Shown here piece by piece: positions 443-51,151 of a stretch of DNA of 64,000 nucleotides. This DNA comes from Planctomycetota bacterium (lineage in GTDB: Bacteria; Planctomycetota; GCA-002687715; CAIWVZ01). Below the pieces are notes generated by a model. It saw only the letters and a list, made by a program, of their open reading frames with translations. It made no database searches and was not told the DNA's origin. A program made the translations under genes and the position numbers. The stretch covers positions 1 through 64,000 of the forward strand of contig JBGANV010000007.1 of NCBI GenBank assembly GCA_044222185.1. The letters run 5' to 3'. How positions within the stretch are numbered: position 1 is the first letter of the stretch; every line of letters begins with the position of its first letter.

Positions 443-1282
443 TCAACGCCCGAGGTGAATCTCGATCGCCTGCGTCAGGATGAACCCGTTCTGGTTCGTG
501 TTCGTGAACTGGATCGCCTGCAAGGCGAACGCGGTGCACTCGAGACCGGGGAGGTTCGGGATCGGGACGGACGTCTGCGCGTTTCCGCTGCCATTGGTCG
601 TGAACGAGACCAATGGCTGGATCGACGAGAGGTCCAGGTAGACGAGGCAGCCGGCCACCGTGAGCGGTGACGCCGCGAGATTCCCGAAGTAGACCGTTCC
701 TCCGGCGTTCGCCGCACCGCTGATGATCGAGATCGTAGCGGCCGACCCGAGCACGGGCGATTGGGCCGCGAGGTAGGTCCCCGTGTTGGGGCACGACGTT
801 CCAACCCATTGCGCGTCCGCCGATTGGTGGCTCAGCGAGAGGATGAACGGTCCGGCGCCCAATCCGAGATGCGCACTCACCGCGATCAACACGGACTCGG
901 ACGGCCCGAGCTGCAGAGTCACGTACGAGAGGACGCCGTTGCACGAATCGTCATCGCAGGCGCGCGGGATCAACGATCCGCAGACCCCGGAGTACACACG
1001 GAGCACCGTGTCCATGATGAATGGCGGTCCTCCGGCGCAGGTCCCGGCCGTGAGAGTGATCGGACAGGGCTGCGTGTTCACGTAGCGGTACCAGACATCT
1101 CGCACAGGTGTGAGTCCGCACGGGCTCGGCGGCAAGCCGGGCTCCGTCGTCGCGGCAGTGCACGTGCCGATGTTGCTGCCGTCCGTGACGAGAGCCGCGT
1201 TGGAGCACAGGTCGTTCGCTGGCGCCTGGGCATGGGACCAGGTGACGATCGCGGCCGCAATGACCAGTGGTGCGTGCCTCAT
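443..1282 (-). CDS. Secreted Cys-rich protein: one 'NDxC..A' PPC-like module plus shared C-terminal domain
   Basis: Signal peptide MRHAPLVIAAAIVTWSHA-Q with GAGGA SD upstream of ATG 1282. Module ANDLCSNA...DVWY...DTVLRVYSG.C...ACDDDSC. C-terminal G.sC..PVLG..GCLVYLD..IP..PGL..LQA..LGR. Confidence 0.8.
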   Translation of the reverse strand: MRHAPLVIAAAIVTWSHAQAPANDLCSNAALVTDGSNIGTCTAATTEPGLPPSPCGLTPVRDVWYRYVNTQPCPITLTAGTCAGGPPFIMDTVLRVYSGVCGSLIPRACDDDSCNGVLSYVTLQLGPSESVLIAVSAHLGLGAGPFILSLSHQSADAQWVGTSCPNTGTYLAAQSPVLGSAATISIISGAANAGGTVYFGNLAASPLTVAGCLVYLDLSSIQPLVSFTTNGSGNAQTSVPIPNLPGLECTAFALQAIQFTNTNQNGFILTQAIEIHLGR

Positions 1283-1338
1283 GGGTTCCTCGACGCGTGC
1301 CATCGTAGTGGTTCGTGTGGCGCGGCGCGGAGGATGTG

Positions 1339-1377
1339 AAAAAAACGCCCGGGTCGTCTTCCGACTCCCGGGCGTTT
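1339..1377 (-). terminator. Rho-independent terminator for the 1428-2684 gene
   Basis: Stem AAACGCCCGGG...CCCGGGCGTTT with A7 on the plus strand (U-tract on minus), about 50 bp after the stop codon. Confidence 0.75.
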
Positions 1378-1427
1378 CGTTCGATCGGTCGCGCGGCTCC
1401 GTCGCGCCGCTCAGCCGAGGGACGGCA

Positions 1428-2684: not shown

Positions 2685-2810
2685 GGCGGATCTCCGGTGC
2701 GCTGACTCGGGGCCGGCCTCACGACGCGCTGAGTTGCGCTCGGGCTTCGCCAGCCGCTGACACGGGAGCATCCGCCGGCGAACCGGATGCGGAAATCTAT
2801 TTCTCGCCCC

Positions 2811-2986: not shown

Positions 2987-3003
2987 GCCGCATGCCGATC
3001 GCG

Positions 3004-3179: not shown

Positions 3180-3231
3180 GCTGAATGTTGCACCCGGCGC
3201 CGTTTCCGCTGCCGCGGTGTATGCTCCTCAC

Positions 3232-4224
3232 ATGACCTCGTTCCGACGCGCGTCCTCCGCGTTGCTCCTCACATGGCTCGTGGTCGGGTCCGTTCCCGCG
3301 CAGTCGACGCCGCCGGGTCTTTGCTTCGCACTCAACGACGTGACCGGTGTGTCCGTGGCGAACCTGCCCCTGGTCGCGGGCGGCGAGGTCTACCTCGCAT
3401 TCACCGCACCCGTCGGCGGCGTCATCGAGCGCGTCGACATCGGCATGTCGTTCCCGGCAAGCCCGACGTACACGCTCGACGTCTTTCAGGCACCCGGCGG
3501 TTCGCTCGGGCCGTTGATCGCCACGGCCACCGGCACCTGGCTCGGACTGGCCATCTTCAACCTGACGTCGCCGGTGACGTTCGCGGCCGGGCAGCAGTAC
3601 GCGCTGCGACTCACGACGCCCGCCGGGTCGCCGGTGTCCTACATCCAGGGGCCCGCGGTTCCGCCGACGCCGCTCTCCTACGCGTTGTCTTGCGGCGCGA
3701 GCCCTCCCGTCATGTTCCCGCCCTGCTCGACATACGCGACGCTCGGGACGTTCGGCGCGACGATCCGCTTCCGAGCCGTGGCCTGCGGACAGTCGCCGCT
3801 CGCGACGGCGATTCAGGTCGGGACGCCCTGCGGAGGCGGGTCGTTCGGGCCATCGATGTCCCTCACCACACCGCCGGTTCTCGGAACGACGACGGCGATC
3901 GCGATCTACGGCGCCTCCGGCATCAACATGGTGTTCGGAGCCGGCGGCCCCGCGACCGGCGGTGTTCCGCTCGGTGGCGGCTGCAACCTCTACCTCGACC
4001 CGATTTCGCTGCAGACACTCGCGGCGGCTGGGCTCGAACCGCTCGTCGCGGCGCCCACGTCTGGATTCCCCACGTACATTTCGATCGCCATTCCGGCGAC
4101 GCCGGCGCTCGCCGGCAGCATCTTCACGCTGCAGACCGCAATCCTCGGCGTGGCCACCGGAGTCGTGATCGCGGGCTACACGACGCAGATGTCGAACGCC
4201 GTCCAGGTGACGCTCGGCTACTGA
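3232..4224 (+). CDS. Secreted protein with small N-terminal beta domain and shared C-terminal domain
   Basis: Signal peptide MTSFRRASSALLLTWLVVGSVPA-Q. C-terminus GTPCGG..PPVLG..GGCNLYLDP..IPATPALAG..LQTA..MSNAVQVTLGY. The upstream ORF extension runs through the repeat element. Confidence 0.8.
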   Translation: MTSFRRASSALLLTWLVVGSVPAQSTPPGLCFALNDVTGVSVANLPLVAGGEVYLAFTAPVGGVIERVDIGMSFPASPTYTLDVFQAPGGSLGPLIATATGTWLGLAIFNLTSPVTFAAGQQYALRLTTPAGSPVSYIQGPAVPPTPLSYALSCGASPPVMFPPCSTYATLGTFGATIRFRAVACGQSPLATAIQVGTPCGGGSFGPSMSLTTPPVLGTTTAIAIYGASGINMVFGAGGPATGGVPLGGGCNLYLDPISLQTLAAAGLEPLVAAPTSGFPTYISIAIPATPALAGSIFTLQTAILGVATGVVIAGYTTQMSNAVQVTLGY

Positions 4225-4332: not shown

Positions 4333-5589
4333 TCACATGTTGAAGCTCCAGACGTTGTCGGAGGCGAAGAGAGCGCCGAGGCCCGGGCTGAACGGCGCGC
4401 CACCCGGAGGCGCGACGATCAGCATGTTCACGAGGTCGAGGAACTGCGGCAGGGTGCCGGCGATCGCAGGTCCACCGAACAGCTGGTAGGGGTAGCCGCC
4501 CGTGGTCCCGATACCCGTCACGGCGTGGATCGGGGTGGCGATCGGCGAGCAGATCGGCTGATAGTTGAGCACGCCCATGTAGATCGTGAGGCACTCGTTT
4601 CCGGGATAGGTGAGCGCGCCGGTCGGGTTGATCCAGCTTCCGACGATCGTGGCGCGGAGGCCCGTCGGAAGGACGCCGGGGATCGGGATCGATCCGCCGC
4701 CCGAGGCCACGCCGTTGCAGCCCGCGCCGAACTGGAGGGTCTGGTGAACGTTGCGGTTCGGCGGAACGAAGCCGCCTGGGGTGAAGCAGTCACAGTTCGT
4801 TCCTGCGGTCGAGAGGAACCCGGCCTGGATGGGAGTCTCGTTCAAGCAGGTGTACGGCACGCCGCCGAGGAAGCGCGAGTTGCGGGTCGCATCCGCGACG
4901 ATCGGGCCCTGGGGCGCCGGGCAAAGAGCGTTGAAGTTGAAGTTGGCGGGCGCGACCAGGTGGTACGTGCGGCGCGGCCAGGTCATGGCCGCCGGAAGCG
5001 GACGAGCGCTGAATGAGGCGTGCATGTCGGTCTCGCACAGGTGCGTGAGCGAGTAGGAGCACGTCCATTGGTTCGTCGCGCAGTTCAACACGTAGTCGAT
5101 GTGACCGATCATGTGGACGGGAAGATTGAACGGCGCGACGGCTGAGAACGGCACGGGGCATCCGACAGCGCCGGCGGCCACGCTCGAATATTGGACATCA
5201 CCGTTCACGATGAAGCGCCAGACCTGGCTTGGGCTGGCGGTCGTGGGGAATTCCATCCAGGTTCTGGAGTACTTGGCGACGAGTAACTGGTTGGCGAGCG
5301 TGAACGCCGCGGTGTTCACCGAGATCTGCATGAACCAGTAATCGCAGAGGACCTGTTGCGGGATGATCAGGTTTCCCGTGTTGAACTGCAGCTCCACGCC
5401 GCAGTCCCTGATGCACGCGCCGGTGCCAGCGATCTGACACGGCGGGAAGACGGGGAGCGTGGGGTTGGCGAGGACGCAACACGGGCCGTTGCGGAAGCCG
5501 TCATCGGTCCCGCATTGCGCCCAGACGCTCGTCGGCAGAACGAGAAGGCTGGAGAAAAGCAAGGCGACGAGGTTCGTGCGAGTCTTCAT
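4333..5589 (-). CDS. Secreted Cys-rich hypothetical protein, paralog B
   Basis: MKTRTNLVALLFSSLLVLPTSVWA-Q signal peptide with GGAG SD. Colinear with paralog A and ends in the same DNVWSFNM. Confidence 0.85.
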   Translation of the reverse strand: MKTRTNLVALLFSSLLVLPTSVWAQCGTDDGFRNGPCCVLANPTLPVFPPCQIAGTGACIRDCGVELQFNTGNLIIPQQVLCDYWFMQISVNTAAFTLANQLLVAKYSRTWMEFPTTASPSQVWRFIVNGDVQYSSVAAGAVGCPVPFSAVAPFNLPVHMIGHIDYVLNCATNQWTCSYSLTHLCETDMHASFSARPLPAAMTWPRRTYHLVAPANFNFNALCPAPQGPIVADATRNSRFLGGVPYTCLNETPIQAGFLSTAGTNCDCFTPGGFVPPNRNVHQTLQFGAGCNGVASGGGSIPIPGVLPTGLRATIVGSWINPTGALTYPGNECLTIYMGVLNYQPICSPIATPIHAVTGIGTTGGYPYQLFGGPAIAGTLPQFLDLVNMLIVAPPGGAPFSPGLGALFASDNVWSFNM

Positions 5590-9568: not shown

Positions 9569-9571
9569 ACC

Positions 9572-14507: not shown

Positions 14508-17500
14508 ATGCCTTCCTCTGCAGATCGTCGAGTCCGGAACCCGCGCATTGCGGGCTTCATGATCCTCGTCGTCGCGCTCGCGGCCTCCTTCGCGCCGGCG
14601 CAATTGAAGATCAGTCAGTTCTCGGGAGCCGGAGCGAACGGCTCCGCGCAGTACCTCTCGGACTACATCGAGCTGTACAACCCGACGGCGGCGCCGGTCG
14701 TCATGACCAACTGGTCCATCCAGTACGCGGCGGCCACCGGTACGACCTGGTCGAAGGTCACGCTGAATGCGACGATCCAGCCGAACCGCTACTTCCTGAT
14801 CCAGCAGGCGAGCGGAACGACGGGTTCGGCGCCGGCGCTGCCGACGCCGGATGTGAGTTCGACGACGATCAACCTCTCGGTTCTCGGCGGGAAGATCGCG
14901 CTCTGCAACGACAACACGACGTTGACGGGCGGACAGCCGACGGCGGCGAGCATCGTCGACTTCGTCGGATACGGCCAGGGCACGACGTTGGCTGACTGGC
15001 GTGAGCCGTTCGTCGGCGGAACCACGGCCAACAACGCGCCCGGCGGAGGCAACGTGAATGCCACGTTCCGCCTCAACTGCGGCGCCCAGGACACGAACAA
15101 CAACGCCGCCGATTTCGCCGTCGGCTGGCCCAACCCGCGAAATAGCGCCACGCCGCCCGCCATCGGCATGATGGGCACGGCGACGGCGAGCCCGTTCTAC
15201 GCGATCGCCGGCACGCCCGTGGTCATCCGCTGCACCCCGCAGCTCTGCGGCGGCGGAACGAGCGCCACCACCGTGGCGTTCGTGGACCTCACGAACATCG
15301 GCGGCGCGGCTGGTACGCCGCTCGTCGATGACGGCACGGGTGCGGACGAGTACGCGTTGGACGGCATCTTCACGGCCGCCGCGACGGTCGGCGCCGTGGC
15401 TGCCGGCACGAAGTCGTTGCCGATCACGTTCAACGACGGCATCAACTCCGGCGGTTGTTACGCCGCGGTGCTCGTCAACGCGGCGACCGCGCCCGCCAAC
15501 GACGCGTGCACCGGCGCGACGGTGCTGTCGGGACCGTTCACCGGCCCCGGCGTCACGGTGTCGGGCACGTTCACGGGCGCGACGCCCGAGTGGAACGGGA
15601 TCGGCTCGATCACCAACCCTCCCGGCCCCAGCGCCGGAATGGCCAACAGCCCGGGCATCTGGTACTCGGTCAACGGAACGGGCACGACGCTCACGGCGTC
15701 CCTCTGCGCGACGACTCCGGCGATCGATACGCGCATGGTGATCATGTGCGGCCCGTGCGATGCCCCCGTGATCGTCGCCAGTGGCGACGACAACGGCCCG
15801 TCATGCACGGGAACGGCCGCGTCCGCGCGGTGGTGTGCGGCTGCCGGAACGACGTACCGGATCTTCATCTCGCCGTTCTCCACCACGTTCCCCTCGACCG
15901 CCGCGTACTCGCTGCTCGTGACGGACGATGGCGTCCCGTGCTCGACGGCGGCACCGTGCACCACGTGCACCTTCGTGCCGCCGGCAAGCTTCATCGCCGA
16001 GCAGGAGTCCGTCTTCGGTCCCGCGACGAACGACGGCGGCGACAGCCAGCCGCTCCTTCAGCAGACCATTCCGGGCGCGTTCCCCGTGACGATCGTCGGC
16101 ACGGCTCGTGGCTACGGCACCGCGCGTGACTCCGACTGGTACCGGTTCCAGGCGTCGGCGACGCAGACGTTCCAGGCCACGCTCTCGGCACCGTTCGCGG
16201 GGGTCGTGAGCGTCCATCCGCTCGACGCCCTCGGCAATCCGACGGCAACGAGCCTCGCGAGCGGCGTCTTCTCTCCGGTTTCCGGGCGCTGTGGCTCCAC
16301 CGTCGTGTCGACGGTCGTGAGCGCCGGCAGCTGGTACGCGATCCGCGTGCTGCACGCGCCGAACTTCCTGAGCGGAACGATCACGGCGAGCGTCTTCGGT
16401 GGACTGCCGCCGCATCCGTCTCAGTGTCGCTACCAGATCGACGTCGCCACCGGGCTTCCACCGACGAACGACGCCTGCGCGTCGGCAATCGCTCTCGCGA
16501 CCACCAACACCTACGTGACGGGGATCACGAGCGGGGCGACGCCCGACGGCACGTCCAGCTGTGACTCCGTCGGCAACGACGTGTGGTACTCGGTCGTCGT
16601 GCCTGCGCCGAACGTCGGACTCGCCATCGACACCTGTGGGTCGTCGATGGACACGGTCGTGTCGGTCTACTCCGGAACCTGCGGCGCGCTCGTTCCCGTG
16701 AACTGCAACGATGACTGCGGTGGCGCACCGTGCGCGGCCACGTCGTCCTGCCTCACGCTGACCGGGTTGGCTCCAGGCACCTACATCATCCGCGTCTCGG
16801 ACAAGGGGACGCCGGGCCTGTTCCAGATCCGCGCCTCGTTGACGATCCCGGTGAACGACGCGTGCTCGGGCGCGCTCCCGATGAATTGCGGCGACACGAT
16901 CGCCGGGACGACGATCGGTGCGACGACGGATACGCTGACGGCGTGCCCGGGACCGGGCTCGCCGACCGGCGTCACGATCGCCGCGACCGGCGGCGTGTGG
17001 TACACGATCACGCCCGCGACGAGCCAAACGCTGATCCTCAGCACCCTGGGCACGTCGTTCGACACCAAGATCCACGTCTACACCGGAAGTTGCGCCGCGC
17101 TGACGTGCGTCATGGCGAACGACGACGCGTTCCCATCGGGGCTTCAATCGCGCGTTGCGTTCCCGGCGATCGGCGGCACCCAGTACTTCGTGATGGTGCA
17201 ACCGTTCTCCGGAACCGGTGGCGTCTTCACGCTTGCTGCGTCCTGCCAGACGCCGCCGGTGAACGATGACTGTGCGGCTCCTTCGATCCTGGCACCGGTC
17301 ACGGGCGGGTCCGTCTCTGGCACGACGGTCGGATCGTCCGCAGCGAACGTCGCTGACCCGAGCTGTTCGGCGAAGGCGGACTCGGACGTGTGGTATTCGT
17401 ACACGGCGTGTGCGAACGGCACCGTCGTCTTCGACACCTGCGGCACCTACAACACGGTCGTTTCGATCCACACGGCTTGCCCGGGTGCGTCGAACAACCA

Positions 17501-19265
17501 GGTTTCGGGCGCGTGCAACGACGACGGCCCGACGGGCTGCCTGCCCGGCTCCCAGGTGACCCTCACGGTGACCGGCGGAACGACCTACCTCATCCGCGTC
17601 GCGTCGAACGACACGACGAACGCAGGTGGCGCGTTCACGCTGCGGTGGACGGTGACGGCGGGTCTCGTGACCCTGTACCAGGACCTCGATGGAGACGGCT
17701 TCGGCAACCTGGCGGCGCCGCTCCTGAATGCGTGCCCGACGACGCCTGGCTACGTCGCCAACTCGCTCGACTGTGACGACATGAACCAGGCAGTCAATCC
17801 CACCGCCACGGAAGTGTGCGACGGGATCGACAACAACTGCAACGGCTTGACCGACGATGCGGATCCGGGAGTCACGGGCCAGCCGACCTGGTACCAGGAC
17901 TCGGATCTCGACGGCTTCGGCAACTCCGCCGTGTTCGTCGTCGCCTGCACGGCGCCGAGCGGTTACGTCGCGAACGCGTTGGACTGCAACGACGGTTGCT
18001 CCTCCTGTTACCCGGGCGCGCCTGAGGTCTGTGACGGCCTCGACAACAACTGCAATGGTCAGACGGACGAAGGCGTGCTCACGACCTGGTATCAGGACGG
18101 TGACGCCGACGGATACGGGAACCCTGCGGTCTTCGTCACGGCTTGCACGCAGCCTTCGGGCTATGTGGCGAATTCGCTGGACTGCAACGACGGCGATTTT
18201 GCGATCAATCCGGGGGCAACCGAGGTCTGCGACGGCTTCGACAACGATTGCGATGGTCTGACTGACGACGCCGACCCGTCGGTGATCGGTCAGTCGACCT
18301 GGTACGCGGACACGGACAACGACGGGTTCGGGAATCCGAGCGCGTCGGTGCTCGCCTGCGTGCAGCCAGTCGGCTACGTCGCTGACAACACGGACTGCAA
18401 CGACACGTGTGCGGCGTGCCACCCCGGCGCGGTGGAGATCTGCGACGGCCTCGACAACGACTGCAACGGTCAGACGGACGAGATCTGCCCGTCGAACGAT
18501 TTCTGCGCGAACGCCACGCCGATCGGTGATGGCACGTTCAGCGGAGATTGCTCGAACGCGGCGACGCAAGTCGGCATGCCGGCCCTGTGCTTCACGGCGG
18601 CCAACGACCTGTGGTACTCGTACGCGAATCCGGGCAGCTGCCCGAAGACGGTGACCGTTTCGCTGTGCCCGACGGACGGCGGATCGGCATCGTTCAACGC
18701 CGGCCTCGCGGCGTTCAGCGGTGCGTGTGGTGGCCTGACGACCGAAGCCTGCAACGACGACACCTGCGGCACGAATCCCAAGGTGACCTTCACGGTCCCC
18801 GGCGGATCGACGCGGTTGATCATGGTCGCGGCGTCGGGCGGGCCTGGCGGCGCGTTCACGATGGTCGTGAGCCATACGTCGGCATCGACGACGGCGGTCG
18901 GCTCGAGCTGCCCGCTCGCGGCGATGTCGTTGTCGACGACGATTCCGGTGATCGGTCAGCCGGCGTCCATCAACCTGACGGGTGGGCCGTCAGGTGCGAT
19001 CGGCCTGTTGCTGTTCAGCGCGAACGCCGCCGCCGTACCGGCGGCCGTCCCGCCGAGCGGCTGCCTCCTTTACACCGACCCGATGGGATTGGGGATCTTC
19101 ACGGTCTTCAGCACCGACGCGTTGGGGAACTGGAGCATCGGTGGGCCGGTCCCGAACGATCCGGGTCTCGAGTGCGTGACTGCCACGTTCCAGGCGCTGG
19201 TCTCGGCGCCGGTCGCCGGCGGCTTCGCCTTCTCGAACGGCGTTTCGATCGTGTTCGGGTACTGA
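14508..19265 (+). CDS. Large secreted multidomain protein: lamin-tail domain, choice-of-anchor-X-like segment, five NDxC PPC-like modules, four MopE-like Cys/Asp repeats, shared C-terminal domain
   Basis: CAGGAG SD before ATG 14508. LKISQ..G....DYIELYN...WSIQY (LTD); LVDDGTGADEYALDGIFT; repeats NDAC/NDDC/NDFC with DVWY; DCND..PGA.EVCDG.DNNCNG.TD x4; ends FSNGVSIVFGY. Confidence 0.88.
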   Translation: MPSSADRRVRNPRIAGFMILVVALAASFAPAQLKISQFSGAGANGSAQYLSDYIELYNPTAAPVVMTNWSIQYAAATGTTWSKVTLNATIQPNRYFLIQQASGTTGSAPALPTPDVSSTTINLSVLGGKIALCNDNTTLTGGQPTAASIVDFVGYGQGTTLADWREPFVGGTTANNAPGGGNVNATFRLNCGAQDTNNNAADFAVGWPNPRNSATPPAIGMMGTATASPFYAIAGTPVVIRCTPQLCGGGTSATTVAFVDLTNIGGAAGTPLVDDGTGADEYALDGIFTAAATVGAVAAGTKSLPITFNDGINSGGCYAAVLVNAATAPANDACTGATVLSGPFTGPGVTVSGTFTGATPEWNGIGSITNPPGPSAGMANSPGIWYSVNGTGTTLTASLCATTPAIDTRMVIMCGPCDAPVIVASGDDNGPSCTGTAASARWCAAAGTTYRIFISPFSTTFPSTAAYSLLVTDDGVPCSTAAPCTTCTFVPPASFIAEQESVFGPATNDGGDSQPLLQQTIPGAFPVTIVGTARGYGTARDSDWYRFQASATQTFQATLSAPFAGVVSVHPLDALGNPTATSLASGVFSPVSGRCGSTVVSTVVSAGSWYAIRVLHAPNFLSGTITASVFGGLPPHPSQCRYQIDVATGLPPTNDACASAIALATTNTYVTGITSGATPDGTSSCDSVGNDVWYSVVVPAPNVGLAIDTCGSSMDTVVSVYSGTCGALVPVNCNDDCGGAPCAATSSCLTLTGLAPGTYIIRVSDKGTPGLFQIRASLTIPVNDACSGALPMNCGDTIAGTTIGATTDTLTACPGPGSPTGVTIAATGGVWYTITPATSQTLILSTLGTSFDTKIHVYTGSCAALTCVMANDDAFPSGLQSRVAFPAIGGTQYFVMVQPFSGTGGVFTLAASCQTPPVNDDCAAPSILAPVTGGSVSGTTVGSSAANVADPSCSAKADSDVWYSYTACANGTVVFDTCGTYNTVVSIHTACPGASNNQVSGACNDDGPTGCLPGSQVTLTVTGGTTYLIRVASNDTTNAGGAFTLRWTVTAGLVTLYQDLDGDGFGNLAAPLLNACPTTPGYVANSLDCDDMNQAVNPTATEVCDGIDNNCNGLTDDADPGVTGQPTWYQDSDLDGFGNSAVFVVACTAPSGYVANALDCNDGCSSCYPGAPEVCDGLDNNCNGQTDEGVLTTWYQDGDADGYGNPAVFVTACTQPSGYVANSLDCNDGDFAINPGATEVCDGFDNDCDGLTDDADPSVIGQSTWYADTDNDGFGNPSASVLACVQPVGYVADNTDCNDTCAACHPGAVEICDGLDNDCNGQTDEICPSNDFCANATPIGDGTFSGDCSNAATQVGMPALCFTAANDLWYSYANPGSCPKTVTVSLCPTDGGSASFNAGLAAFSGACGGLTTEACNDDTCGTNPKVTFTVPGGSTRLIMVAASGGPGGAFTMVVSHTSASTTAVGSSCPLAAMSLSTTIPVIGQPASINLTGGPSGAIGLLLFSANAAAVPAAVPPSGCLLYTDPMGLGIFTVFSTDALGNWSIGGPVPNDPGLECVTATFQALVSAPVAGGFAFSNGVSIVFGY

Positions 19266-23710: not shown

Positions 23711-24343
23711 ATGCCCAGAGCGGAACCCGAACGCGGGTTCGCTGCCGATCTTGCGGCCGCGCGCACCGGCGACCGTGTAGCCCTCGAACGGATCCTCAAG
23801 ACCGTCGAAACAGCCCTCGAGCGCGTGGCCGCCCGACGCCTCGGCGTCCGGCTGAAGGCGAGGACGCGGGTTTCGGACGTCGTCCAGAGCGTCCTCCTCG
23901 AGATCATCCAGAGCCTGGACAGTTTCGACGGCCCCGATTCGAGCGCCTTCGAGGCCTGGTCGGTGACCGTCCTCGAGAACCACATCCGCCGCCAGGACCG
24001 GTTCTTTCGGGCCAAGAAGCGCGCCGCGCCCTCCCGGACGAGCCAGAAGCAGGTGATGGAGAAGGCCCGCGCCCGCCCCGTCGCGACCCCGAGCGCGGAG
24101 GTCGCCCGGGCGGAGGACATGGCGCTCGTCACCGAGGCCGTGAAGCTCCTGTCCGAGGACCACCGGGCCGTCATCCGTCACTCGGTGATCGAGGGCCGTT
24201 CTCATCGAGACGTCGCCACGATCATCGGCCGGAGCGAACAGGCGACCCGCATGCTCTTGTGCCGGGCGCGGGCGGCCCTGAGCCTCGCCATCGAGGAGGT
24301 CGAGTCCGGACGCAAGAGCCGGGGTCGAGGGGCGGCGCGCTGA
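23711..24343 (+). CDS. ECF sigma factor (kinase-associated type)
   Basis: GGAGGT SD. ARTGDRVAL, RLGVRLKARTRVSDVVQS, FEAW, LSEDHRAVI..IEGRSHRDVA..IGRSEQATRMLLCRAR. Confidence 0.9.
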   Translation: MPRAEPERGFAADLAAARTGDRVALERILKTVETALERVAARRLGVRLKARTRVSDVVQSVLLEIIQSLDSFDGPDSSAFEAWSVTVLENHIRRQDRFFRAKKRAAPSRTSQKQVMEKARARPVATPSAEVARAEDMALVTEAVKLLSEDHRAVIRHSVIEGRSHRDVATIIGRSEQATRMLLCRARAALSLAIEEVESGRKSRGRGAAR

Positions 24344-33725: not shown

Positions 33726-36700
33726 ATGTTGGATTCGTTCAGTCGACCCACATCGCAGCGCCACGGACGGCGCTGTTCCGTCAGCATGCTGTCGATCGCC
33801 ACGTTCCTCGTCGCCGCAACGCTGGCTCGAGGGCAAGCGTTCACGCCGATTTCCGGAACGCTGTTCGACGGCTCAGGCGGACCCCTCCTCGCCAACACCA
33901 CGTACGTCGTCACGGGAACCATCACGGTGCCCGTCGGGCAGACGTTGACGATCAACTCGGGCGCCGGAGTGAAGTTCAACAGCGGTCTCGAGATGGTCGT
34001 GAACGGGACGCTCAACGTGAACGGGACGGCACCTGCGCCGGTTCGTTTCACCTCATTTCGCGACGACTCGGTCGGAGGAGACACGAACGGCAACGGGGCC
34101 TCGTCGGGCGGTGCGGCGGACTGGCGCGGCCTGACCTTCAACTCGACCGCCACGGTCACGATGACTCAGGCGTCGGTGCGTTACGGCGGCTCGGCATTCT
34201 TCCCCGGGATCGGGAACCTCGGCGCCAACATGACGCTGTCGAACGTCACCGTCGGCAACTGCTACGACGCCGGCCTGAGCCTCAACGGCCAGGCGGCCAC
34301 GGTCTCCGTCTCGAACTGCACGTTCACGGCCAACGGTGGCTACGCCGTCCAGGCGGCCCGACTCGACCAGTTGAACGGGTTCACGAACAACTCGGCGAGC
34401 GGAAACGGCGTGAACACGATCCGGATCAGTGTCGGCACCCTCGCCGTGAATCGCACGATCACGGCTGCCAACTGCATGAACGGCGCCGTCTTCGTCGACA
34501 CCTCGATCCAGGTGAGCACGGGTGTGACGCTGACTTTGCAGGCGGGAACCGCGTTCAAGATGAACGGCGGCACCGGCGTGACCGTGGACGGCACGCTCAT
34601 CACGAACGGCACGGCGGGCTCGCCCGTCTACTTCACGTCGTTCCCCGATGACTCGGTCGGAGGCGACACGAACAACAACGGCGTGAGCTCTGGTTCCCCG
34701 ACACAGTGGCTCGGGGTCACGCTCAACTCGACGGCGTCCGCGAGCAGCCTGACGCGGCTCGTCACGCGATACGGCGGTGGGTCCTTCTTCCCTGGCATCC
34801 GTCTTTCAGCCTGCAACGCAACCCTGAACGCGTGCCGCATCGAGAACTTCTACGACCACGGCCTGAACTGCTCGAACAACAGCCTTCCGACGGTCACCGG
34901 TTGCACGTTCACCGGCAACGGCAACGTGGCCGTCACCGGCGTTCAGCTGCAGGCGATCCCCGGCTTCACGAACAACTCGGCGAGCGGAAATGGAGGGAGC
35001 TTCATCCAGATCACCGATTCGACGATGACGGGCAGCAAGACGATCATTCCCGCGAACTGCATGAACGGCGCGCTCGTGGTGAACACGCCGCTCTCCGTAC
35101 CGGCGGGTGCGACTCTCACGATGGCCGCCGGGACCTGCATGAAGTACCAGTCGAACTACCGGTTCCAGATCGACGGGACGCTGCTGGTGAACGGATCGAG
35201 TGGCACCCCCGTGATCATGACCTCCATCCAGGACGACTCCGCGTTCGGTGACACGAACAACAACGGCCCGTCTGCGGGCTCGCCGACCCAATGGGCCGGC
35301 GTCCTCTTCATGTCGACGTCGGATGCCAGCGTGATCCACGGACTCGAAGTCCGCTACACGGGCGCGTCCTTTCTGGCGGGCATCGAACTTCGCGACGCCG
35401 ACATCGTTCTGGAGAGCAGCAAGGTCACGTCGACCTACGCCGACGGAATCAACCTCAACGCCGGCGGTGCGAACGCCACGATCAACGCGTCCATCAGCAA
35501 CTGCACCCTCACGTCGTGCAACGGGTATGCGATCAACAACGTGGCGCTCGACGCGGTGCCGCATCTGCTGAACAACACGGGGAGCGCGAACGGCTCGACC
35601 TCTGTCCACGTGACCGTGGGCACGCTTGCGGCCTCGACGCTCACGGTTGGTCCGGCGAACGGGATGAGCGGCGTTTTGTTCTTCTCCGACAGCCTCACGG
35701 TGCCGGCGGGGCGTACGCTCGCGATGCAGGCGGGTCTGATCTGCAAGTTCTCCGGCGGTTTGAACGCCAGCATCACCGGGACGCTGCTTGCTGCGGGTAC
35801 CGCGGCGAGCCCGATCTACTTCACCTCGGCTCAGGACGACTCCGTCGGCGGCGACACGAACGGCAACGGCCCGTCGAGCGGGAGCCCCACGAACTGGCAG
35901 GGCATCTACTTCAACACGGGATCGTCCGGAAGCCTCCTGACCCAGGTGACGACCCGATTCGTGGGGGCCAGCTTCGTCGCGGGTGCGGTATTCGCCGGGG
36001 GATCGCCGACGCTGTACACCTGCACGTTCAGTGACGGATTCGCCGCCGGCCTGAACTTCACCGACTCGTCGTCGCGGCCGACTGTCGTCGAGTGCCATCT
36101 CGTCAACAACGGTGGCTATGCCGTCGACAACGTGCCCGTGGATGCGCTCCAGGGCTTCGCGAACAACTACGCGACCGGCAACCACACGGACGTGATTCGC
36201 GTGACGAACAGCACGCCGGTCGGAGATCTCTTCATCGGGCCGCAGGCCGGAATCGCCATCTTCATGGCGGCGGGCCTGTCGATCCCAGGGGGACGCAGCG
36301 TCGACGTCCTGCCCGGGACGATCATCAAGATGGGCGGTGGCACGGGCGTCGACGTCACCGGCTCGCTCGACGTCCGCGGCACCGGATACGAGCCCGTGGT
36401 CTTCACCTCCTACGGCGACGACAGCTACGGCGGTGACTCGAACGGGAACGGCCCGAGCACCGGCAGCCCGACCGATTGGCGCGGCCTGACGTACACGGCG
36501 GGTGCGACGGCATCGTCGGTCGAGAACGTGATCATCCGCAACACCGGAAGCGGGTTCTTCGCTGCGCTCAGCCTCCAGTCGCCGAACGTCTCGGCTCGCG
36601 CGGTGCGCGTCGAGCGCTGCTTCGACCACGGCATCACGGCGTCGGCGCTCTCGGGTGCGGGCATGAACTGGGTTGCGAACGCCTGCAACAACGCGGGCAT

Positions 36701-37403
36701 CCGCCTCACCGGTGGTGGATTCGACGTCGTGCACGCGACCGTGACGGCGTGCGGCACGGGTGTGAACGGAACCGGTTGGACGGGCAACGTGCGCAACTCG
36801 ATCGCGTGGGGCAACACGACGAACTTCGCGGCCATTCCCCAGGCCCGCGTCTTCAACTCGGACGGCGCCTTCGCCGGCATCAACGGCAACCTGAACGTGG
36901 ATCCCCAGTTCGTCGCACCTGCGACGGGGGACTACCACCTCCAGGGCAGCTCGCCCTGCATTGGCAACGGTGACGTCGCCGTCGCCATCGCCACCGAGAA
37001 GGACTGGGACGAGCAGCCTCGCCTGATCGACTCCACGTTGAGCGGGACGGCAGCACCGGAGATGGGTGCCTTCGAGCGCCCGATCTGGCAGATGACCGTG
37101 AACGGCGTGTCGCGGCTCGGCGCGACCGTCACGTTCCAGGTGAACGGCGCACCGGGAACGTCGTTCTACGTGCTCGGAGCTCTGGATGGGTCGTTCTACC
37201 TCGGCAACTACGGGATGGGCCTCGCGGGGTTGAGCCCGCTGATCCTCGTCGCCCTTCCGGTCGGGACGCCGTTCTCCGTGACGATCCCGCAGGATCTCAA
37301 CCTCCTCGGCCTCATGGCGGGCATCCAGACGCTGACGGCGCTCGGCAGCAACCCGGCGCTCGGCAGCACGACGAACCTCTACCGCGCCGTCGTCCGGCCG
37401 TGA
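33726..37403 (+). CDS. Secreted right-handed beta-helix repeat protein with C-terminal domain
   Basis: Signal peptide ending LARG-Q. Five large repeats marked by FTSxxDDSxGGDTNxNG..W.G. NLNVDPQFV..DYHLQ.SSPCI..G (choice-of-anchor-Q-like). Tail IPQDLNLLG..IQTL..TN. Confidence 0.88.
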   Translation: MLDSFSRPTSQRHGRRCSVSMLSIATFLVAATLARGQAFTPISGTLFDGSGGPLLANTTYVVTGTITVPVGQTLTINSGAGVKFNSGLEMVVNGTLNVNGTAPAPVRFTSFRDDSVGGDTNGNGASSGGAADWRGLTFNSTATVTMTQASVRYGGSAFFPGIGNLGANMTLSNVTVGNCYDAGLSLNGQAATVSVSNCTFTANGGYAVQAARLDQLNGFTNNSASGNGVNTIRISVGTLAVNRTITAANCMNGAVFVDTSIQVSTGVTLTLQAGTAFKMNGGTGVTVDGTLITNGTAGSPVYFTSFPDDSVGGDTNNNGVSSGSPTQWLGVTLNSTASASSLTRLVTRYGGGSFFPGIRLSACNATLNACRIENFYDHGLNCSNNSLPTVTGCTFTGNGNVAVTGVQLQAIPGFTNNSASGNGGSFIQITDSTMTGSKTIIPANCMNGALVVNTPLSVPAGATLTMAAGTCMKYQSNYRFQIDGTLLVNGSSGTPVIMTSIQDDSAFGDTNNNGPSAGSPTQWAGVLFMSTSDASVIHGLEVRYTGASFLAGIELRDADIVLESSKVTSTYADGINLNAGGANATINASISNCTLTSCNGYAINNVALDAVPHLLNNTGSANGSTSVHVTVGTLAASTLTVGPANGMSGVLFFSDSLTVPAGRTLAMQAGLICKFSGGLNASITGTLLAAGTAASPIYFTSAQDDSVGGDTNGNGPSSGSPTNWQGIYFNTGSSGSLLTQVTTRFVGASFVAGAVFAGGSPTLYTCTFSDGFAAGLNFTDSSSRPTVVECHLVNNGGYAVDNVPVDALQGFANNYATGNHTDVIRVTNSTPVGDLFIGPQAGIAIFMAAGLSIPGGRSVDVLPGTIIKMGGGTGVDVTGSLDVRGTGYEPVVFTSYGDDSYGGDSNGNGPSTGSPTDWRGLTYTAGATASSVENVIIRNTGSGFFAALSLQSPNVSARAVRVERCFDHGITASALSGAGMNWVANACNNAGIRLTGGGFDVVHATVTACGTGVNGTGWTGNVRNSIAWGNTTNFAAIPQARVFNSDGAFAGINGNLNVDPQFVAPATGDYHLQGSSPCIGNGDVAVAIATEKDWDEQPRLIDSTLSGTAAPEMGAFERPIWQMTVNGVSRLGATVTFQVNGAPGTSFYVLGALDGSFYLGNYGMGLAGLSPLILVALPVGTPFSVTIPQDLNLLGLMAGIQTLTALGSNPALGSTTNLYRAVVRP

Positions 37404-45824: not shown

Positions 45825-48431
45825 TCACTGCACGGAAATCCGGGCGACGCGGCTCCAGCAGCCCAACGTGCCGCCCGTCCAGTCGAAGCACACGGCGTCG
45901 AGCGAGAGTCCGGGTGGCAGCAGAATCCCACCGAAGGTCCGCGCGCCCACCGGTGAAAGGAAGTGGATCGGGACCGCTCCGACGGGAAGGCTGAATTGAA
46001 ACAGGAGCAACGATGGATCGGGCGCACACAGCCCGAGGTACGGGCCCCCGCCGGGAAGTCCACCGCAAGGCGTGTCGCTGAAGATGTTGTAGTACTCGTG
46101 CGACTTCACCAGCGACGTGTTCTGCACCGTGACCGGCCCGCCAGGGCTCCCTTGCGTCATGCTGATCGTCGGCCGGAGGGGACCCCACTTGGCGATCCCT
46201 CTCGATGGCACTCCACCGACACCTCCGAACGTCCCGCCGACGAACAACGCCGACCCGGATCCGTCATCGTGTGCGACCAACGCCTGGCCGCCGACGCTCG
46301 ACGTGTTCTGGAAGGTGCCTCCGAGCGGAGTCCAGATTCCGGGCCCCAGCATCTTCAGGACGCCGGTCGCAGAAGTCGCAAACAGCGCCGGACCACTTCC
46401 ATCGTCCCAGATCGTCAACGCGGCGACGGAGGTCGGAGACGCGGGACCAACCGACGACCACGACGTTCCATTCCACTTCATGACCCCCGTCGCGGATGAG
46501 CCGTTGAGGCTCCCGATCGCGCCACCGAGGAAGAGAGCCGGGCCGCTGCCGTCGTCGAAGATGCGGAGCGCGCTCCTCGCGTTCGAAACGCCACCCGTGG
46601 TCGCGATCACCTGCCACGACGTCCCGACGCGCTCGAATACCGAATTCGGGGTCGTGATGCCGCCGCCCCAAGGCCGCACGACTCCGAACAGTCGTGGACC
46701 GGTGCCGATGTCGCCGAACGCAAGCGCCTTCACCTCGATCCCGGTAGGCGCGCCCAGGTCCGACCACGCCGTACCGTTCCAAGCCGCCATCGAGTTGGCG
46801 GGTACGCCGCCCGCCGACGTGAAGATGCCGCCGACCACGAGCTTCGGACCACTGCCGTCGTTCATGACGGTGAAGGCGTGCGCCACTGGGAGTGGCGGCA
46901 ACGGGAGCGGCGGGCCGCCGGTGAGGCCTCCGAGCACGCTACCCCACGACGATCCGTTCCACCGCGCGACGGTTCCGGGCACTCCACCGCCGGCGTAGAG
47001 CTCTGGGCCGTTGCCGGAATCGAAGATCGCGAGCGCCTCCACGGATCCCAACGCTGCCGATCCAAGCGGCAACCACTGGCCGTTCAGGAACGCCGCGACG
47101 CCGCTCGCCGCGACGCCGCCGATGCGAAGGAACGAGCCGCCGGCGAACAGTGCATGCGCGCCCAAGAGGTCACCGGATACGAGAGCCGACAGCGATCCCG
47201 TCGGCGCGACGCCGTTCCCGGGAAGGGAAGACCAGGCCGTTCCGTCCCAACGCAAGATTTCAGAATGCGTCGTGCTGCCGGGCGTGGACATGGCCGCATG
47301 GAGCGCGGGCCCCGTCCCATCATCGAAGACCAGGCCGCTGTAGCCCTGCGCCGCGCCGAACCCCGAGCCGGCCGGCGACCACGCTCCACCGCGATACCGG
47401 GCCACGCCGCCCGTCGACGTTCCGCCCGCCGAGGTCACCTGCCCGAATGCGAACAACGCGGACCCGCCTCCGTCATCCCACGCGGTGAGCGCCGACAACC
47501 CCGTGGAACCCAGACCCGAGCCGGGCGTCGACCACGCGGAACCATTCCACTTCGCGATGTGGTTCGCCGGCATCCCTCCGGCCACGCTGAAGAATCCTCC
47601 GACGAACAGCGCAGGGCCGAAACCATCGTCGTAGACGACGGCATCTCGAGCGACGGACGACGGTCCCGAGATGCCCGCTCCCAAGGCGGTCCATGCCGTC
47701 CCGTTCCACCGTGCCACGTTCGATGCGATTCCCATCCCCGTGAAGGTGAATCTTCCGACGGCATAGAGACCCGGGCCCGAGCCATTGGTCCAGGATCGAA
47801 GCGCATGGATGTCGCCGAAGGCTCCCTGTCCCACGTCCACCCACGCCGTGCCGGTCCATCGTGCGAGGCTGTTGAGCACCACGGAGCCGGACGCGCCGAA
47901 CGTGCCACCGGCATGGAGCGCCGGACCCGCTCCGTCATCGAAGACGCACAGCGTGCGCACCGCGCCATTCAACCCGGCTCCGACCGGCGCCCAGTTCGTT
48001 CCGTTCCACCGTCCGATGTTCGCGAGCGCAATCCCGTTCGTCGTGCTGAAGGCCCCCGAGAACCCGACGTAGAGCGCCGGTCCCGATCCGTCGTCGAACG
48101 CCGCGAGCGCGAGCGGCACCGGAGGCATCGTTCCGGATTGCCACGTGGGGAGAAACGGCACGGCGGACCACGCAACCCCGTTCCATTGCATCAAGCTGCC
48201 GTGGTCCGAAGCGGCGTTGGCGCCAGCGAAGAGCCGCGGTCCCGATCCATCGTCGAAGGTGCCCAGTGCCCCGGAGAATCCGGATGGCTGGAGATAGGGC
48301 GATCCGAATCCCTCGGACCACCCGGCGACGCACTGCGCCACGGCCGCCGAACCGGTGAAAAGCAAAATGCCCGCGAAGACGGCGTGAGTCACGAACTTTG
48401 AGCTGGGCAATGGCGAGCTCGATCTGGTCAT
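45825..48431 (-). CDS. Secreted beta-propeller-like repeat protein (DDGxGPxL repeats) with type-2 C-terminal domain
   Basis: Signal peptide ending SAAVA-Q. More than ten repeats of (F/W)DDGxGPAL(Y/F)xGG.F..AGG....IA.WNG..WS. Tail GGGPYLGL..LPPGLSLDA. Confidence 0.88.
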   Translation of the reverse strand: MTRSSSPLPSSKFVTHAVFAGILLFTGSAAVAQCVAGWSEGFGSPYLQPSGFSGALGTFDDGSGPRLFAGANAASDHGSLMQWNGVAWSAVPFLPTWQSGTMPPVPLALAAFDDGSGPALYVGFSGAFSTTNGIALANIGRWNGTNWAPVGAGLNGAVRTLCVFDDGAGPALHAGGTFGASGSVVLNSLARWTGTAWVDVGQGAFGDIHALRSWTNGSGPGLYAVGRFTFTGMGIASNVARWNGTAWTALGAGISGPSSVARDAVVYDDGFGPALFVGGFFSVAGGMPANHIAKWNGSAWSTPGSGLGSTGLSALTAWDDGGGSALFAFGQVTSAGGTSTGGVARYRGGAWSPAGSGFGAAQGYSGLVFDDGTGPALHAAMSTPGSTTHSEILRWDGTAWSSLPGNGVAPTGSLSALVSGDLLGAHALFAGGSFLRIGGVAASGVAAFLNGQWLPLGSAALGSVEALAIFDSGNGPELYAGGGVPGTVARWNGSSWGSVLGGLTGGPPLPLPPLPVAHAFTVMNDGSGPKLVVGGIFTSAGGVPANSMAAWNGTAWSDLGAPTGIEVKALAFGDIGTGPRLFGVVRPWGGGITTPNSVFERVGTSWQVIATTGGVSNARSALRIFDDGSGPALFLGGAIGSLNGSSATGVMKWNGTSWSSVGPASPTSVAALTIWDDGSGPALFATSATGVLKMLGPGIWTPLGGTFQNTSSVGGQALVAHDDGSGSALFVGGTFGGVGGVPSRGIAKWGPLRPTISMTQGSPGGPVTVQNTSLVKSHEYYNIFSDTPCGGLPGGGPYLGLCAPDPSLLLFQFSLPVGAVPIHFLSPVGARTFGGILLPPGLSLDAVCFDWTGGTLGCWSRVARISVQ

Positions 48432-48601
48432 GCGACGATCCTCGGGAGTCTTGTCCCCGACGGTGGTGGTGAGGCTATCCTCATGATCATGGCGTGTCCA
48501 CGCGCTCGCGTCGCTGAAAGCCTGCAATTCACGGGAACTTCGTGCGCAGGCCGAGACGTCGATGCGCGAGCGCCAAAGCGATTTCGGCCGAGGTCTCTCC
48601 G

Positions 48602-51151
48602 ATGAATGACGTCCGCGCGATCGTCTTCGCCTGCGGTTTTGCTGCCCTCGCCTGCCAGTTTTCCGCCGGGCAGGGCGTGCCGCTGTTCGAGCCTCGCGTG
48701 ATCTCGCTGCAGGTCTCGATTCCGGGCTCCGCGATCGTGAATCCAACGCACGGCATGCTGGTCGATCTCGACGGAGACGGCGACGCGGACTTCGTCACGT
48801 TCGACGTGCAGGGGTACGTCGTCGTCTGCCTCGCCAGCAACGGGACCCTCGGGCCCGCCGCGGCGTATCCCATCGGTCAGAGCGTCGCGTGTGCGACGGC
48901 CGGCGACATCGATGGTGACGGGGACGTCGACCTGGTCATCGTCGGAACCTACGTGTCCTCGGCGCTGTGGGTGTATCGCAACGACGGGGCTGGCGGATTC
49001 GGCGCTCCTCCACTCATTCAACTCCTTCCCGCCGGGAGGTCGTACTGGACCGTGACGATCGCGCGGATGAACGCCGACGCGATACCGGATCTCTTCACGA
49101 GCGGCGGAGCGACTCCCTCGACGGTGCTCATCGGAAGCGGGAACGGGACGTTCACGGCGACGACCGGGCCGATCTTGCCGTCGTTGCTGTTCGACGTCGC
49201 AGACGACGACGGAGACGGTGACGACGACATTCACGTGATTTCAGTGCCCAACGTCGTCACCTACCGCAACACCGGGCAAGGCAGCTTCGCGCCGCCGATT
49301 CCCCGGTTTCCCGTGGCGTCCAGCGCGACCAATGTCTGGGTGAGGGACATCGACCTGGACACGAATCGCGACTTCGTCGTCTTCTCGTCATCGGGCGGCG
49401 GCTCGACGTCCATGCAGGTCGCTCTCGGAAACGGGTCGGGGTCCTACTCCGTTGGCGCTCCGCAAATCGTCGCGACGACGCTCTGCACGAACCCGATACT
49501 CACGGACGCCGATGGTGACGGCGACCTCGATCTCTTCGTGGTCACGCAGTCCGGGAGCCTCGGGCTCGCACGGAACGCGGGCGCCGCAACGTTCAGTCCG
49601 GTGTCGGTCTTCGACCCGTCGCTCGGCACCACGGTGTTGACCGGCGACTTGGACGGCGACGGCGTCAGCGACGTACTTCAGCTCTACACGAGCTTTGCGA
49701 CGCTCCGCAGAGGCGTCGCGCCGAATGCCGTCCAGCCGTTGATCGAGGTGCCCATCGGGTCCACGTTCGGTTTCGGCCTCCTCCTCACCGACCTGAACTC
49801 CGACGGCTTGCCGGACCTGGTCGTGAGCGCCTTCTCGGGACTCACGCTGCTGATGGGGCTCGAGCAGTCGCCGACGCCGCAGTTCATCTCCGGGTCCGCT
49901 CCGTCGTCGCCGGGCATCGTGGCGGCGGACTTCAATCGCGACGGATTCCTCGACGTGATGTCGCTCACTTCGCTCGGCACGCTCGAACTCAGGCTCGGCG
50001 ACGGGCAGGGAGGCCTGGCGCCGCCGTCCGTCGTCTCCGTGGGTGCTGGCGGGCGGACCGTCGTTGCGGCGGACGTGAACGGCGACGGCAATCCGGACGC
50101 CGTCGTGCTCTTCACTGGTTCCCTCGCGGTGCGGCTCGGTGATGGGGCTGGGGGCTTCGGTGCGCCGATCGTGACCCCGTCTCCCGTCACGTCGGCCACC
50201 AGCAGCGTGGGCGACGAGCGGCTGTTCCTCGCGGACCTGAACGGCGATGGCTTCCTCGATGCCGTGGTCTACCCAGGAGCCGCGGCCTCGACCCCCGGCT
50301 TCGGCATCCTGTTGGGGAATGGCACCGGAGCGTTCCCGTCCTCGTCGGTCCTGCCCGGCTCCGCTTCGGGACGATGGCCAGCACTCCACGACGTCAACGA
50401 TGATGGTGTTCCCGACCTGCTGTTCACGATCGTCTCGACGAGCCAGTTCGCCGTGAGGTTCGGTGTCGGTGACGGCACGTTCCTCCCGTTCGTGCTGACG
50501 CCGATCGCGGGCCCGGGCGACATCGCCGTGGCCGATTTCGACGGCGATGGATTCCCGGACGTGATGACGAGCACGGGTTGGCTGATCCGCAACGATGGAA
50601 CAGGCGCGTTTCCACAGACGGAGAGGATCGGCCCGATCTCCGGAACTCTTCGGACGGCGGACGTCAATGCGGACCTTCAGGTCGATGCCGTATTCGTTCA
50701 CTCGAGCTCCCAGTCCGCCTCGGTGTCGATTCTGCACGACCTTCGACGCTGCCCGTGCACCGGGTTTCGATATGGGATTGGTTGCCCCGGCGCGGCGGGG
50801 GTCGTGCCGGCACTTTCCGCTCGCGGATGCGCGTCGCCGGGCGCGACGCTTTCGCTCGACGTTCGCGGCGGACTCGGCGGAGCATCCGGAGGACTGGTGA
50901 TCGATCAAGCCGCCGTGAATACGCCCGTGGGCTACGGCTGTGCGGCGTTGGTTCCCTTCAGCATGCCGACGGTTCTTCCTTTCGTTCTCGGCGGCCCGCC
51001 GGTCGCAGGCCTCGGACGGACGACGTTCAGCGTGACGCTCCCGCCGACGTTTCCGACGGGAGTGACGGCGGCACTGCAGGCCGTCGTCTTCGATGCGGCG
51101 TCACCGCTTCAGGTGTCGGCGACGAACGGGGTCTCACTGGTCATCCGGTAG
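48602..51151 (+). CDS. Secreted FG-GAP/VCBS repeat protein with shared C-terminal domain
   Basis: Many DxDGDGxxD motifs with LGxGxG.F linkers. Tail YGIGCPG...P.L...GC..LPP...LQAVVFD...ATNGVSLVIR. Confidence 0.9.
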   Translation: MNDVRAIVFACGFAALACQFSAGQGVPLFEPRVISLQVSIPGSAIVNPTHGMLVDLDGDGDADFVTFDVQGYVVVCLASNGTLGPAAAYPIGQSVACATAGDIDGDGDVDLVIVGTYVSSALWVYRNDGAGGFGAPPLIQLLPAGRSYWTVTIARMNADAIPDLFTSGGATPSTVLIGSGNGTFTATTGPILPSLLFDVADDDGDGDDDIHVISVPNVVTYRNTGQGSFAPPIPRFPVASSATNVWVRDIDLDTNRDFVVFSSSGGGSTSMQVALGNGSGSYSVGAPQIVATTLCTNPILTDADGDGDLDLFVVTQSGSLGLARNAGAATFSPVSVFDPSLGTTVLTGDLDGDGVSDVLQLYTSFATLRRGVAPNAVQPLIEVPIGSTFGFGLLLTDLNSDGLPDLVVSAFSGLTLLMGLEQSPTPQFISGSAPSSPGIVAADFNRDGFLDVMSLTSLGTLELRLGDGQGGLAPPSVVSVGAGGRTVVAADVNGDGNPDAVVLFTGSLAVRLGDGAGGFGAPIVTPSPVTSATSSVGDERLFLADLNGDGFLDAVVYPGAAASTPGFGILLGNGTGAFPSSSVLPGSASGRWPALHDVNDDGVPDLLFTIVSTSQFAVRFGVGDGTFLPFVLTPIAGPGDIAVADFDGDGFPDVMTSTGWLIRNDGTGAFPQTERIGPISGTLRTADVNADLQVDAVFVHSSSQSASVSILHDLRRCPCTGFRYGIGCPGAAGVVPALSARGCASPGATLSLDVRGGLGGASGGLVIDQAAVNTPVGYGCAALVPFSMPTVLPFVLGGPPVAGLGRTTFSVTLPPTFPTGVTAALQAVVFDAASPLQVSATNGVSLVIR

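Follow-up and report, generated by a model that had tools for sequence, protein, structure and literature searches.

The 64,000-nt window analysed here (G000:C2:1-64000, forward strand; ~68% GC), from a bacterium of the Planctomycetota, encodes five exported proteins that end in a similar domain of about 130 amino acids, hereafter the type-1 domain. With its diverged and type-2 versions, which are pooled in this genome-wide carrier count, the domain occurs in ~8% of the genes of the genome (387 of 4829, according to our own gene-model calls) and in ~31,000 public clusters at 50% identity, yet neither Pfam nor NCBIfam holds a model for it. Proteins that bear it are probably destined for the cell surface, with the domain as their mark. 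The reading that we favour, although only tentatively, is that of an uncleaved module of the immunoglobulin (Ig) or fibronectin type III (Fn3) kind, whose carriers would be exported by Sec, would then probably cross the outer membrane by type II secretion (T2SS) and would be retained non-covalently at the surface.

A shared domain at the end of five exported proteins

A sequence-only reading of the window had proposed that five proteins with signal peptides and unrelated passengers share a C-terminal domain. All five open reading frames (ORFs) exist and end in the tail as described, and each starts with a Sec-type signal peptide followed by a small residue and Gln (5/5). Pairwise BLASTP comparison of the tails was significant only for those at 443 and 18880 (6e-14), with E values of 0.015–7 for the remaining pairs. 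When window membership was re-scored with a leave-out profile, from which the window tails were excluded, four tails matched strongly (E 3e-29 to 6e-14) and the fifth, at 37085, only weakly (15.7 bits, E 0.039; 200 shuffles reach 9.8 at best). Judged by its sequence, this fifth tail is probably a diverged member of the type-1 domain. The passengers are diverse overall, as had been claimed, except that the proteins at 443 and 14508 have a common module (38% over 118 aa). Also as stated, the tails lack a transmembrane (TM) helix plus basic cluster, with 0–2 Lys/Arg among the last 40 residues of all five and just 0.3% Lys and 2.0% Arg in the domain as a whole, and a predicted TM segment is absent from 195 of 207 carriers.

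A profile of the five tails matched 79 ORFs of the genome (7.08 Mb, 16 contigs, 93.8% complete) in the first pass, in 75 of which the match ended at most 10 aa from the stop, and the third round detected 219 domains in 216 ORFs; reversed-ORF decoys gave no match at E < 1e-3 in any of the three rounds. The genome-wide count that had been suggested as a check thus places the superfamily on hundreds of diverse Sec substrates. With a strict heuristic predictor, which also underlies the Gln counts given below, a signal peptide was found in 143 of 208 type-1 carriers versus 1009 of 4078 other proteins, and many of the carriers missed look like start-site errors. Grouping of 347 carriers gave 194 passenger families, in nine of which type-2 tails occur alongside type-1 or diverged ones; passengers scoring above cut-off include choice-of-anchor Z and PF23759.

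All 22 genomes of the same order were positive, with 26–122 matches each. In a phylum sample of 150 genomes, in which copies per genome were scored up to 27, the domain was present in 31 genomes, 30 of them with at least six copies, so that its distribution across the phylum is nearly all-or-none. A public search returned 31,424 clusters (50% identity) at E 0.001 or better, some repeat artefacts included; since one of the matched proteins, P0008, proved to be such an artefact, with 11 matched stretches, this number is only approximate. Word-based homolog searches returned 3 and 12 proteins, with no cultured strain among them.

Fold and catalogue status of the domain

Modelling with AlphaFold2 on a 65-sequence alignment (pLDDT 92.4) predicted an all-beta sandwich of the Ig/Fn3-like type. 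In fold searches, the best matches were generic Ig, Fn3 and macroglobulin domains (Z 8.1–8.6). The comparison proposed earlier, with the C-terminal domains (CTDs) of type IX secretion (T9SS), cohesin and FlgD-Ig, was answered in part: the PorZ CTD was found (Z 7.1, rmsd 2.6, 80 residues), tied with many Ig folds, while cohesin and FlgD-Ig, like ML domains, were not among the VIA fold matches listed, which do not exclude them. With regard to a cohesin fold, too, the best matches were generic Ig folds. Ester-bond Ig domains appeared among the Foldseek matches, all of them weak.

Conservation is seen mainly at Gly, Pro and core positions, and at a Gln (91%) and a Ser/Thr (98%). The near-invariant Gln and Ser/Thr-Asn lie on adjacent strands (alignment A1, profile columns 109 and 124–125), where they are probably a buried hydrogen-bond pair. 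Cys13 and Cys66 were both present in 54 cases, one or the other alone in 15 and 2, and neither in 36; because they co-vary, a disulfide would be expected between them. Overall cysteine parity gave no signal.

The view of the domain as an uncharacterised module was borne out in the collections searched. No Pfam family covers it (0/65 members matched), NCBIfam gave no match for the five tails, and a PDB sequence search yielded no solved relative. Matches in the ESM Atlas were unnamed, mostly Planctomycetota clusters, 30 of 30 without a common Pfam family, and named clusters scored 0.83 or less. No description of the domain was found in a literature search that left subscription papers and preprint supplements outside its scope; term searches in papers on deep-branching planctomycetes (10.1101/817700, 10.64898/2026.10.26.761892, PMC11032199) turned up no mention of it in the passages covered, and the supplements of these papers could bear on the point.

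For the type-2 tails, the model was of similar quality (pLDDT 93.9), and its strands follow one another as they do in type 1. Profile comparison links type 2 to type 1 through the diverged members, with probabilities of 98% and 75%, versus 21% for the direct comparison, and the three versions are a probable single superfamily.

Position in the carrier proteins

The claim that the domain is strictly C-terminal had to be given up. Among the carriers, it is C-terminal in 315, N-terminal in 31, internal in 17 and present at both ends in 4, and a further 20 are shorter than 215 aa, some of these being gene remnants; 72 of 387 thus fall outside the C-terminal class, and tandem and permuted forms occur too. 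Hits were not mostly internal or cytoplasmic, the outcome that had been named as speaking against a sorting or anchoring signal. N-terminal copies stand directly after the signal peptide, ahead of kelch or other domains, and seven intact signal-peptide proteins of 150–202 aa hardly exceed the domain itself. Two proteins are made of three domain copies in tandem. Five proteins bear circularly permuted tails, all of which gained on a permuted profile, on which three normal tails lost ~20–45 bits. Type-2 tails were C-terminal in 72 of 72 cases. The N-terminal, internal, tandem and permuted copies point to a module that is read as a fold, not to a cleaved tail of the T9SS type, and this suggests that the fold, rather than a free C-terminal motif, is what matters.

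Gln after the signal peptide

The sequence-only reading had also taken the Gln that follows the signal peptide as a pointer to the tail system. Gln occurs after the hydrophobic stretch in 116 of 126 type-1 and 48 of 49 type-2 carriers (control windows: 21 and 7), but of the 697 remaining proteins with a signal peptide, 486 have it as well (79 in the control windows). As carriers and non-carriers both have it, Gln is a genome-wide rule and not specific to the tail, and it applies to ~70% or more of Sec substrates in a planctomycete. In Bacteroidota, according to PMC5837995, Gln after the signal peptide is no sorting signal; the rule, described as specific to that phylum, appears to hold in this planctomycete lineage too. 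A plant-type glutaminyl cyclase (PF05096) was not matched in the genome, with controls positive, and the animal type was probed by a crude motif alone.

Composition of the carriers and the favoured reading

Passenger charge was compared among 638 soluble proteins with signal peptide and Gln, in which it is bimodal. The domain was present in 256 of the 295 proteins with less than 16% charged residues, in 15 of the 84 in between and in none of the 259 with 22% or more. Extracellular proteins are compositionally cheaper than periplasmic ones, as reported in PMC2932507, and on this ground the low-charge carriers would work outside the outer membrane.

In the favoured reading, the module would serve as an outside address for Sec-exported proteins and would be read by its three-dimensional surface, not as a free C-terminal peptide. 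Carriers would be exported by Sec, for which the signal peptides are seen, and cleavage by signal peptidase I would expose the Gln. They would then fold in the periplasm, where the co-varying Cys residues may form the internal disulfide, and would pass the outer membrane in folded form, most likely by T2SS, whose genes are present. Finally, the module would hold its carrier at the cell surface non-covalently, in the manner of SLH, CWB2 and dockerin modules, and it may also aid recruitment to the secretin.

With regard to the outer membrane, the genome encodes eight secretins and two Omp85 proteins. In a T2SS-type cluster, recognised by sequence motifs, a pair of GspD-like genes precedes genes that resemble those for an ATPase, GspF and a pseudopilin, and type II secretion was the sole outer-membrane route found for folded proteins. 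Elsewhere in the genome (L072, G000:C7:76435-86883), two secretins bearing TPR repeats flank a 950-aa protein without a family that weakly resembles Amuc_1098. The dedicated co-occurring outer-membrane machinery that had been predicted was not found: of the candidates profiled, namely a FadL barrel, a C25 peptidase and a short secretin, none has a distribution that cleanly matches that of the domain. These were compared between 32 tail-positive genomes and 20 or 41 tail-negative ones, and kinship confounds the distributions of all three.

A number of observations weigh against the favoured reading. None of the profiled candidates (FadL, C25, short secretin) was identified as a partner or ligand, and secretins are common in tail-negative planctomycetes too. 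A stand-alone subfamily was considered as a universal core subunit and rejected, since conservation stops at the level of the family (5 of 39 genomes). In codon use it resembles ribosomal genes (ranks 52, 117 and 274 of 4504), which is weak evidence, and the carriers taken together show no such enrichment (22 of 365 in the top 5%). The C-terminal share of copies is 81%, and among the true top hits of the public search 148 of 149 are C-terminal; an uncleaved anchor would not call for so strong a bias. Taken by itself, the permuted extension outscored all 200 shuffles in just one of the five cases. The charge split is indirect, since the profiles are themselves low-charge and the passengers are mutually related; a within-family control, whose 'tail-less' set still contained domain-positive proteins, fell short of significance: charge was lower on the side with the tail in 16 of 28 pairs (p = 0.10). 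Finally, 39 of the 295 low-charge proteins have no detectable copy.

Alternative readings

The domain could instead be a portable folded recruitment signal for T2SS, with cargo that is exported and mostly released and no anchoring role, which we consider rather unlikely. Nearly all proteins of the low-charge Sec class bear it and none of the high-charge class do, and a precedent exists: T2SS recognises structural signals, and in Pel3 and PelI a key signal lies in a Fn3 domain at the N-terminus, according to PMC7949064. The PelI/Pel3 Fn3 domains (Dickeya, Pectobacterium), which are N-terminal and bear a structural secretion signal, resemble ours in being seven-stranded Fn3-type domains on Sec substrates, and they are found among the fold matches (Z 7.2 and 7.6), where, however, they are tied with dozens of unrelated Ig folds and score no higher than the Ig background. 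They differ in being confined to a few pectate lyases and in forming only part of a composite signal, whereas the present family is found on most extracellular-type proteins.

This alternative also draws on the short secretin, a 430-aa lipoprotein-type protein that is encoded between genes for a Skp-like protein and a GspK-like pseudopilin (unit L071:43-3075, G000:C1:1909242-1912274). All nine genomes of the order that were tested have it in single copy, and as far as the contigs extend its position is syntenic. A profile of its N-terminal part matched 23 of 32 tail-positive versus 2 of 41 tail-negative genomes at E < 1e-10, but 10 of these 23 were in the query alignment, only weak matches were obtained in families f45, f72 and most of f62, and one genome (G043) that has neither tail type encodes a clear ortholog. 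Kinship alone could yield such a correlation. The short secretin is thus a lead, not an established partner, and the proteins without cargo and those with three tandem copies are odd for a pure export tag.

A broader proposal is that the domain is a universal, position-independent, folded export tag, read by an outer-membrane translocon special to this clade, either a T2SS variant with the short lipoprotein secretin or another. This is possible, if rather doubtful; were it true, the T9SS CTD would have in this domain an independent counterpart beyond the FCB phyla, by which the products of ~8% of genes are routed.

It is quite improbable that a T9SS-like system is at work, in which an outer-membrane translocon would read the domain at the C-terminus and a PorU-like C25 peptidase would cleave it and attach the cargo to a surface glycolipid. 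Like T9SS CTDs, as described in PMC11285876, the domain is a predicted Ig-like sandwich at the C-terminus of Sec substrates, and the PorZ CTD is among its fold matches. Moreover, the genome encodes a tail-less PorU-like C25 peptidase of 892 aa (L121, G000:C1:2008849-2011527), with His and Cys motifs in place, of which 16 of 20 same-order genomes encode one long ortholog each. As an obligatory partner, however, this peptidase was rejected: in other orders, none of the 23 tail-positive genomes has it at full length; a C25 of any kind occurs in 21 of 32 positive versus 19 of 41 negative genomes; and the peptidase scores 150 versus the PorU cut-off of 420. The FadL barrel, encoded beside tail genes, was likewise discarded (3 of 32 positive and 2 of 20 negative genomes; 31 bits versus the PorV cut-off of 90). 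A genome search for T9SS CTDs gave no match, with its controls silent too, and SprA (TIGR04189) was not matched in the 93.8% complete genome, its control being silent as well. No large barrel candidate was seen beyond BamA, TamA/B-type proteins and one TonB-receptor-like protein, and the N-terminal, internal and permuted copies misfit C-terminal cleavage.

We give little credence to a generic accessory domain, i.e., a spacer, a stability element or a weak ligand-binding domain spread through an expanded secretome without any sorting or anchoring role. The low median pairwise identity of the paralogs (22%), conservation mostly of Gly, Pro and core residues, the common Ig sandwich and passengers rich in other mobile modules would agree with it. 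Nevertheless, the domain nearly always occurs as one copy per protein, at a terminus; it is nearly all-or-none by genome, with 26–47 copies kept in smaller relatives of 2.4–3.2 Mb; and its two versions swap on the same passengers. Least probable of all is a periplasmic location of the carriers, with a module that would bind peptidoglycan or, from the inside, the outer membrane, possibly a lipid: the domain is very apolar (6.4% charged residues), the Foldseek list includes ML-type lipid-binding proteins (GM2 activator, MD-2 and NPC2; E 2e-3 or weaker) and a few carriers have CXXCH motifs, but those ML matches have an rmsd of ~10 Å and TM <0.46, the high-charge, periplasmic-type proteins lack the domain altogether, and the passengers are modules of typical surface and adhesion kinds.

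Comparison with known systems

The domain works like a T9SS CTD or a module of the SLH/dockerin type, yet it is a member of none of these families. It shares with the T9SS type A CTD (PF18962 / TIGR04183) a C-terminal beta-sandwich, predicted here to be Ig-like, on hundreds of unrelated Sec substrates, the low identity, the all-or-none occurrence by genome, the Gln after the signal peptide and passengers such as PF23759. It differs in its length of ~130 aa, with an N-terminal arm, an inserted hairpin and the expected disulfide, versus 70–100 aa for the CTD, a compact 3+4 sandwich; in the lack of matches to PF18962 (0/65 members in Pfam) and TIGR04183 (five tails in NCBIfam); in its N-terminal, internal, tandem, stand-alone and permuted copies; and in the company of PorV and PorU candidates below cut-off and no SprA match (control silent).

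Dockerin, SLH and CWB2 are small uncleaved modules that occur on many surface proteins, at either end and sometimes in tandem. The present domain is likewise found at either terminus and in tandem, but fold and sequence differ: SLH and CWB2 matched 0 of 65 members, and dockerin was found neither in domain members nor in the genome, with both genome-search controls positive; neither a scaffold nor a wall-polymer partner came to light. Its carriers share with T2SS substrates the Sec signal peptides, and T2SS machinery is encoded in the genome. PEP-CTERM/exosortase and LPXTG/sortase systems are similar in that a common C-terminal tag is found on diverse cargo with choice-of-anchor domains; here, however, there is no motif, TM helix or basic cluster, and neither sortase (PF04203; three controls positive) nor exosortase (PF09721; control positive) was matched in the genome, in line with the earlier statement that the tail is not of the sortase or exosortase type.

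For a planctomycete clade about which little is known, the domain offers a ready-made marker of the surface proteome. Should it prove to be a T2SS export tag, the choice of folded substrates by T2SS, a question of long standing, could be probed with a single transferable domain; should it be an anchor, an envelope component not described so far would be implied.

Features of the window

The domain-bearing proteins of the window are compiled in Table 1, which also includes two proteins with type-2 tails.

Table 1. Proteins of the window with type-1, diverged or type-2 domains, and positions of the domains
Feature	Position	Strand	Remarks
Exported protein, 279 aa: signal peptide, predicted +1 Gln, small passenger (as in the 14508 protein), type-1 domain	443..1282	-	Passenger 11.0% charged
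C-terminal type-1 Ig-like domain	446..847	-	Profile envelope; leave-out 100 bits, E 3e-28
Exported protein, 330 aa: passenger without Pfam family, type-1 domain	3232..4224	+	Passenger has a weak, sub-cut-off match to choice-of-anchor R
C-terminal type-1 Ig-like domain	3772..4221	+	Profile envelope; leave-out 54 bits, E 6e-14
Exported protein, 1585 aa: LTD, PPC, GBD_T9SS_assoc (PF23759), Cu-binding_MopE repeats, type-1 domain	14508..19265	+	
C-terminal type-1 Ig-like domain, copy modelled with AlphaFold2 (pLDDT 92.4)	18849..19262	+	Leave-out 103 bits
Exported beta-helix protein, 1205 aa, diverged tail	33786..37403	+	
Diverged type-1 domain without Gly-Cys arm, probable member	37014..37400	+	E 6e-8 (self included); leave-out 15.7 bits, E 0.039
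Exported protein with related type-2 domain at its end	45825..48392	-	Tail ~45828-46202; predicted strand order as in type 1
Exported FG-GAP/VCBS propeller protein, 849 aa, type-1 domain	48602..51151	+	
C-terminal type-1 Ig-like domain	50723..51148	+	Profile envelope; leave-out 74 bits, E 4e-20
Exported astacin/FG-GAP/LTD protein, choice-of-anchor Z domain, type-2 domain at its end	55077..58859	-	Tail ~55080-55454

Genes for Ser/Thr kinases and ECF-sigma-like proteins adjoin tail genes in the window (19315-22143, 23711-24343, 51382-54354 and 54351-55037). Genome-wide, where kinases number ~125, one lies within two genes of 82 of 370 carriers; the same holds for 389 of the 4459 other genes and for 12 of the 259 exported proteins of high charge. 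These neighbours may reflect kinase-controlled expression of the surface proteome. At G000:C14:150418-153957, the reading frame of a kinase gene continues downstream into a signal peptide and a protein with a tail; a kinase–tail fusion was rejected here in view of the internal signal peptide, and the locus is probably two in-frame genes with no stop between them.

The 2773-aa ORF at 24509-32830 (+) has, by eye, a FAD-oxidoreductase-like motif at its start and an ETF-alpha-like region at its end, and is possibly a large electron-transfer fusion. Two close, Cys-rich exported paralogs of 418 aa without a Pfam family are encoded at 1428-2684 and 4333-5589 (-); seven proteins of this type occur in the genome, with their own distinct C-terminal region, and they are low-charge but have no Ig domain. 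Another low-charge exported protein without a tail, of 2533 aa (G000:C14:344753-352354), has a basic C-terminal tip that by eye resembles those of polymorphic toxins.

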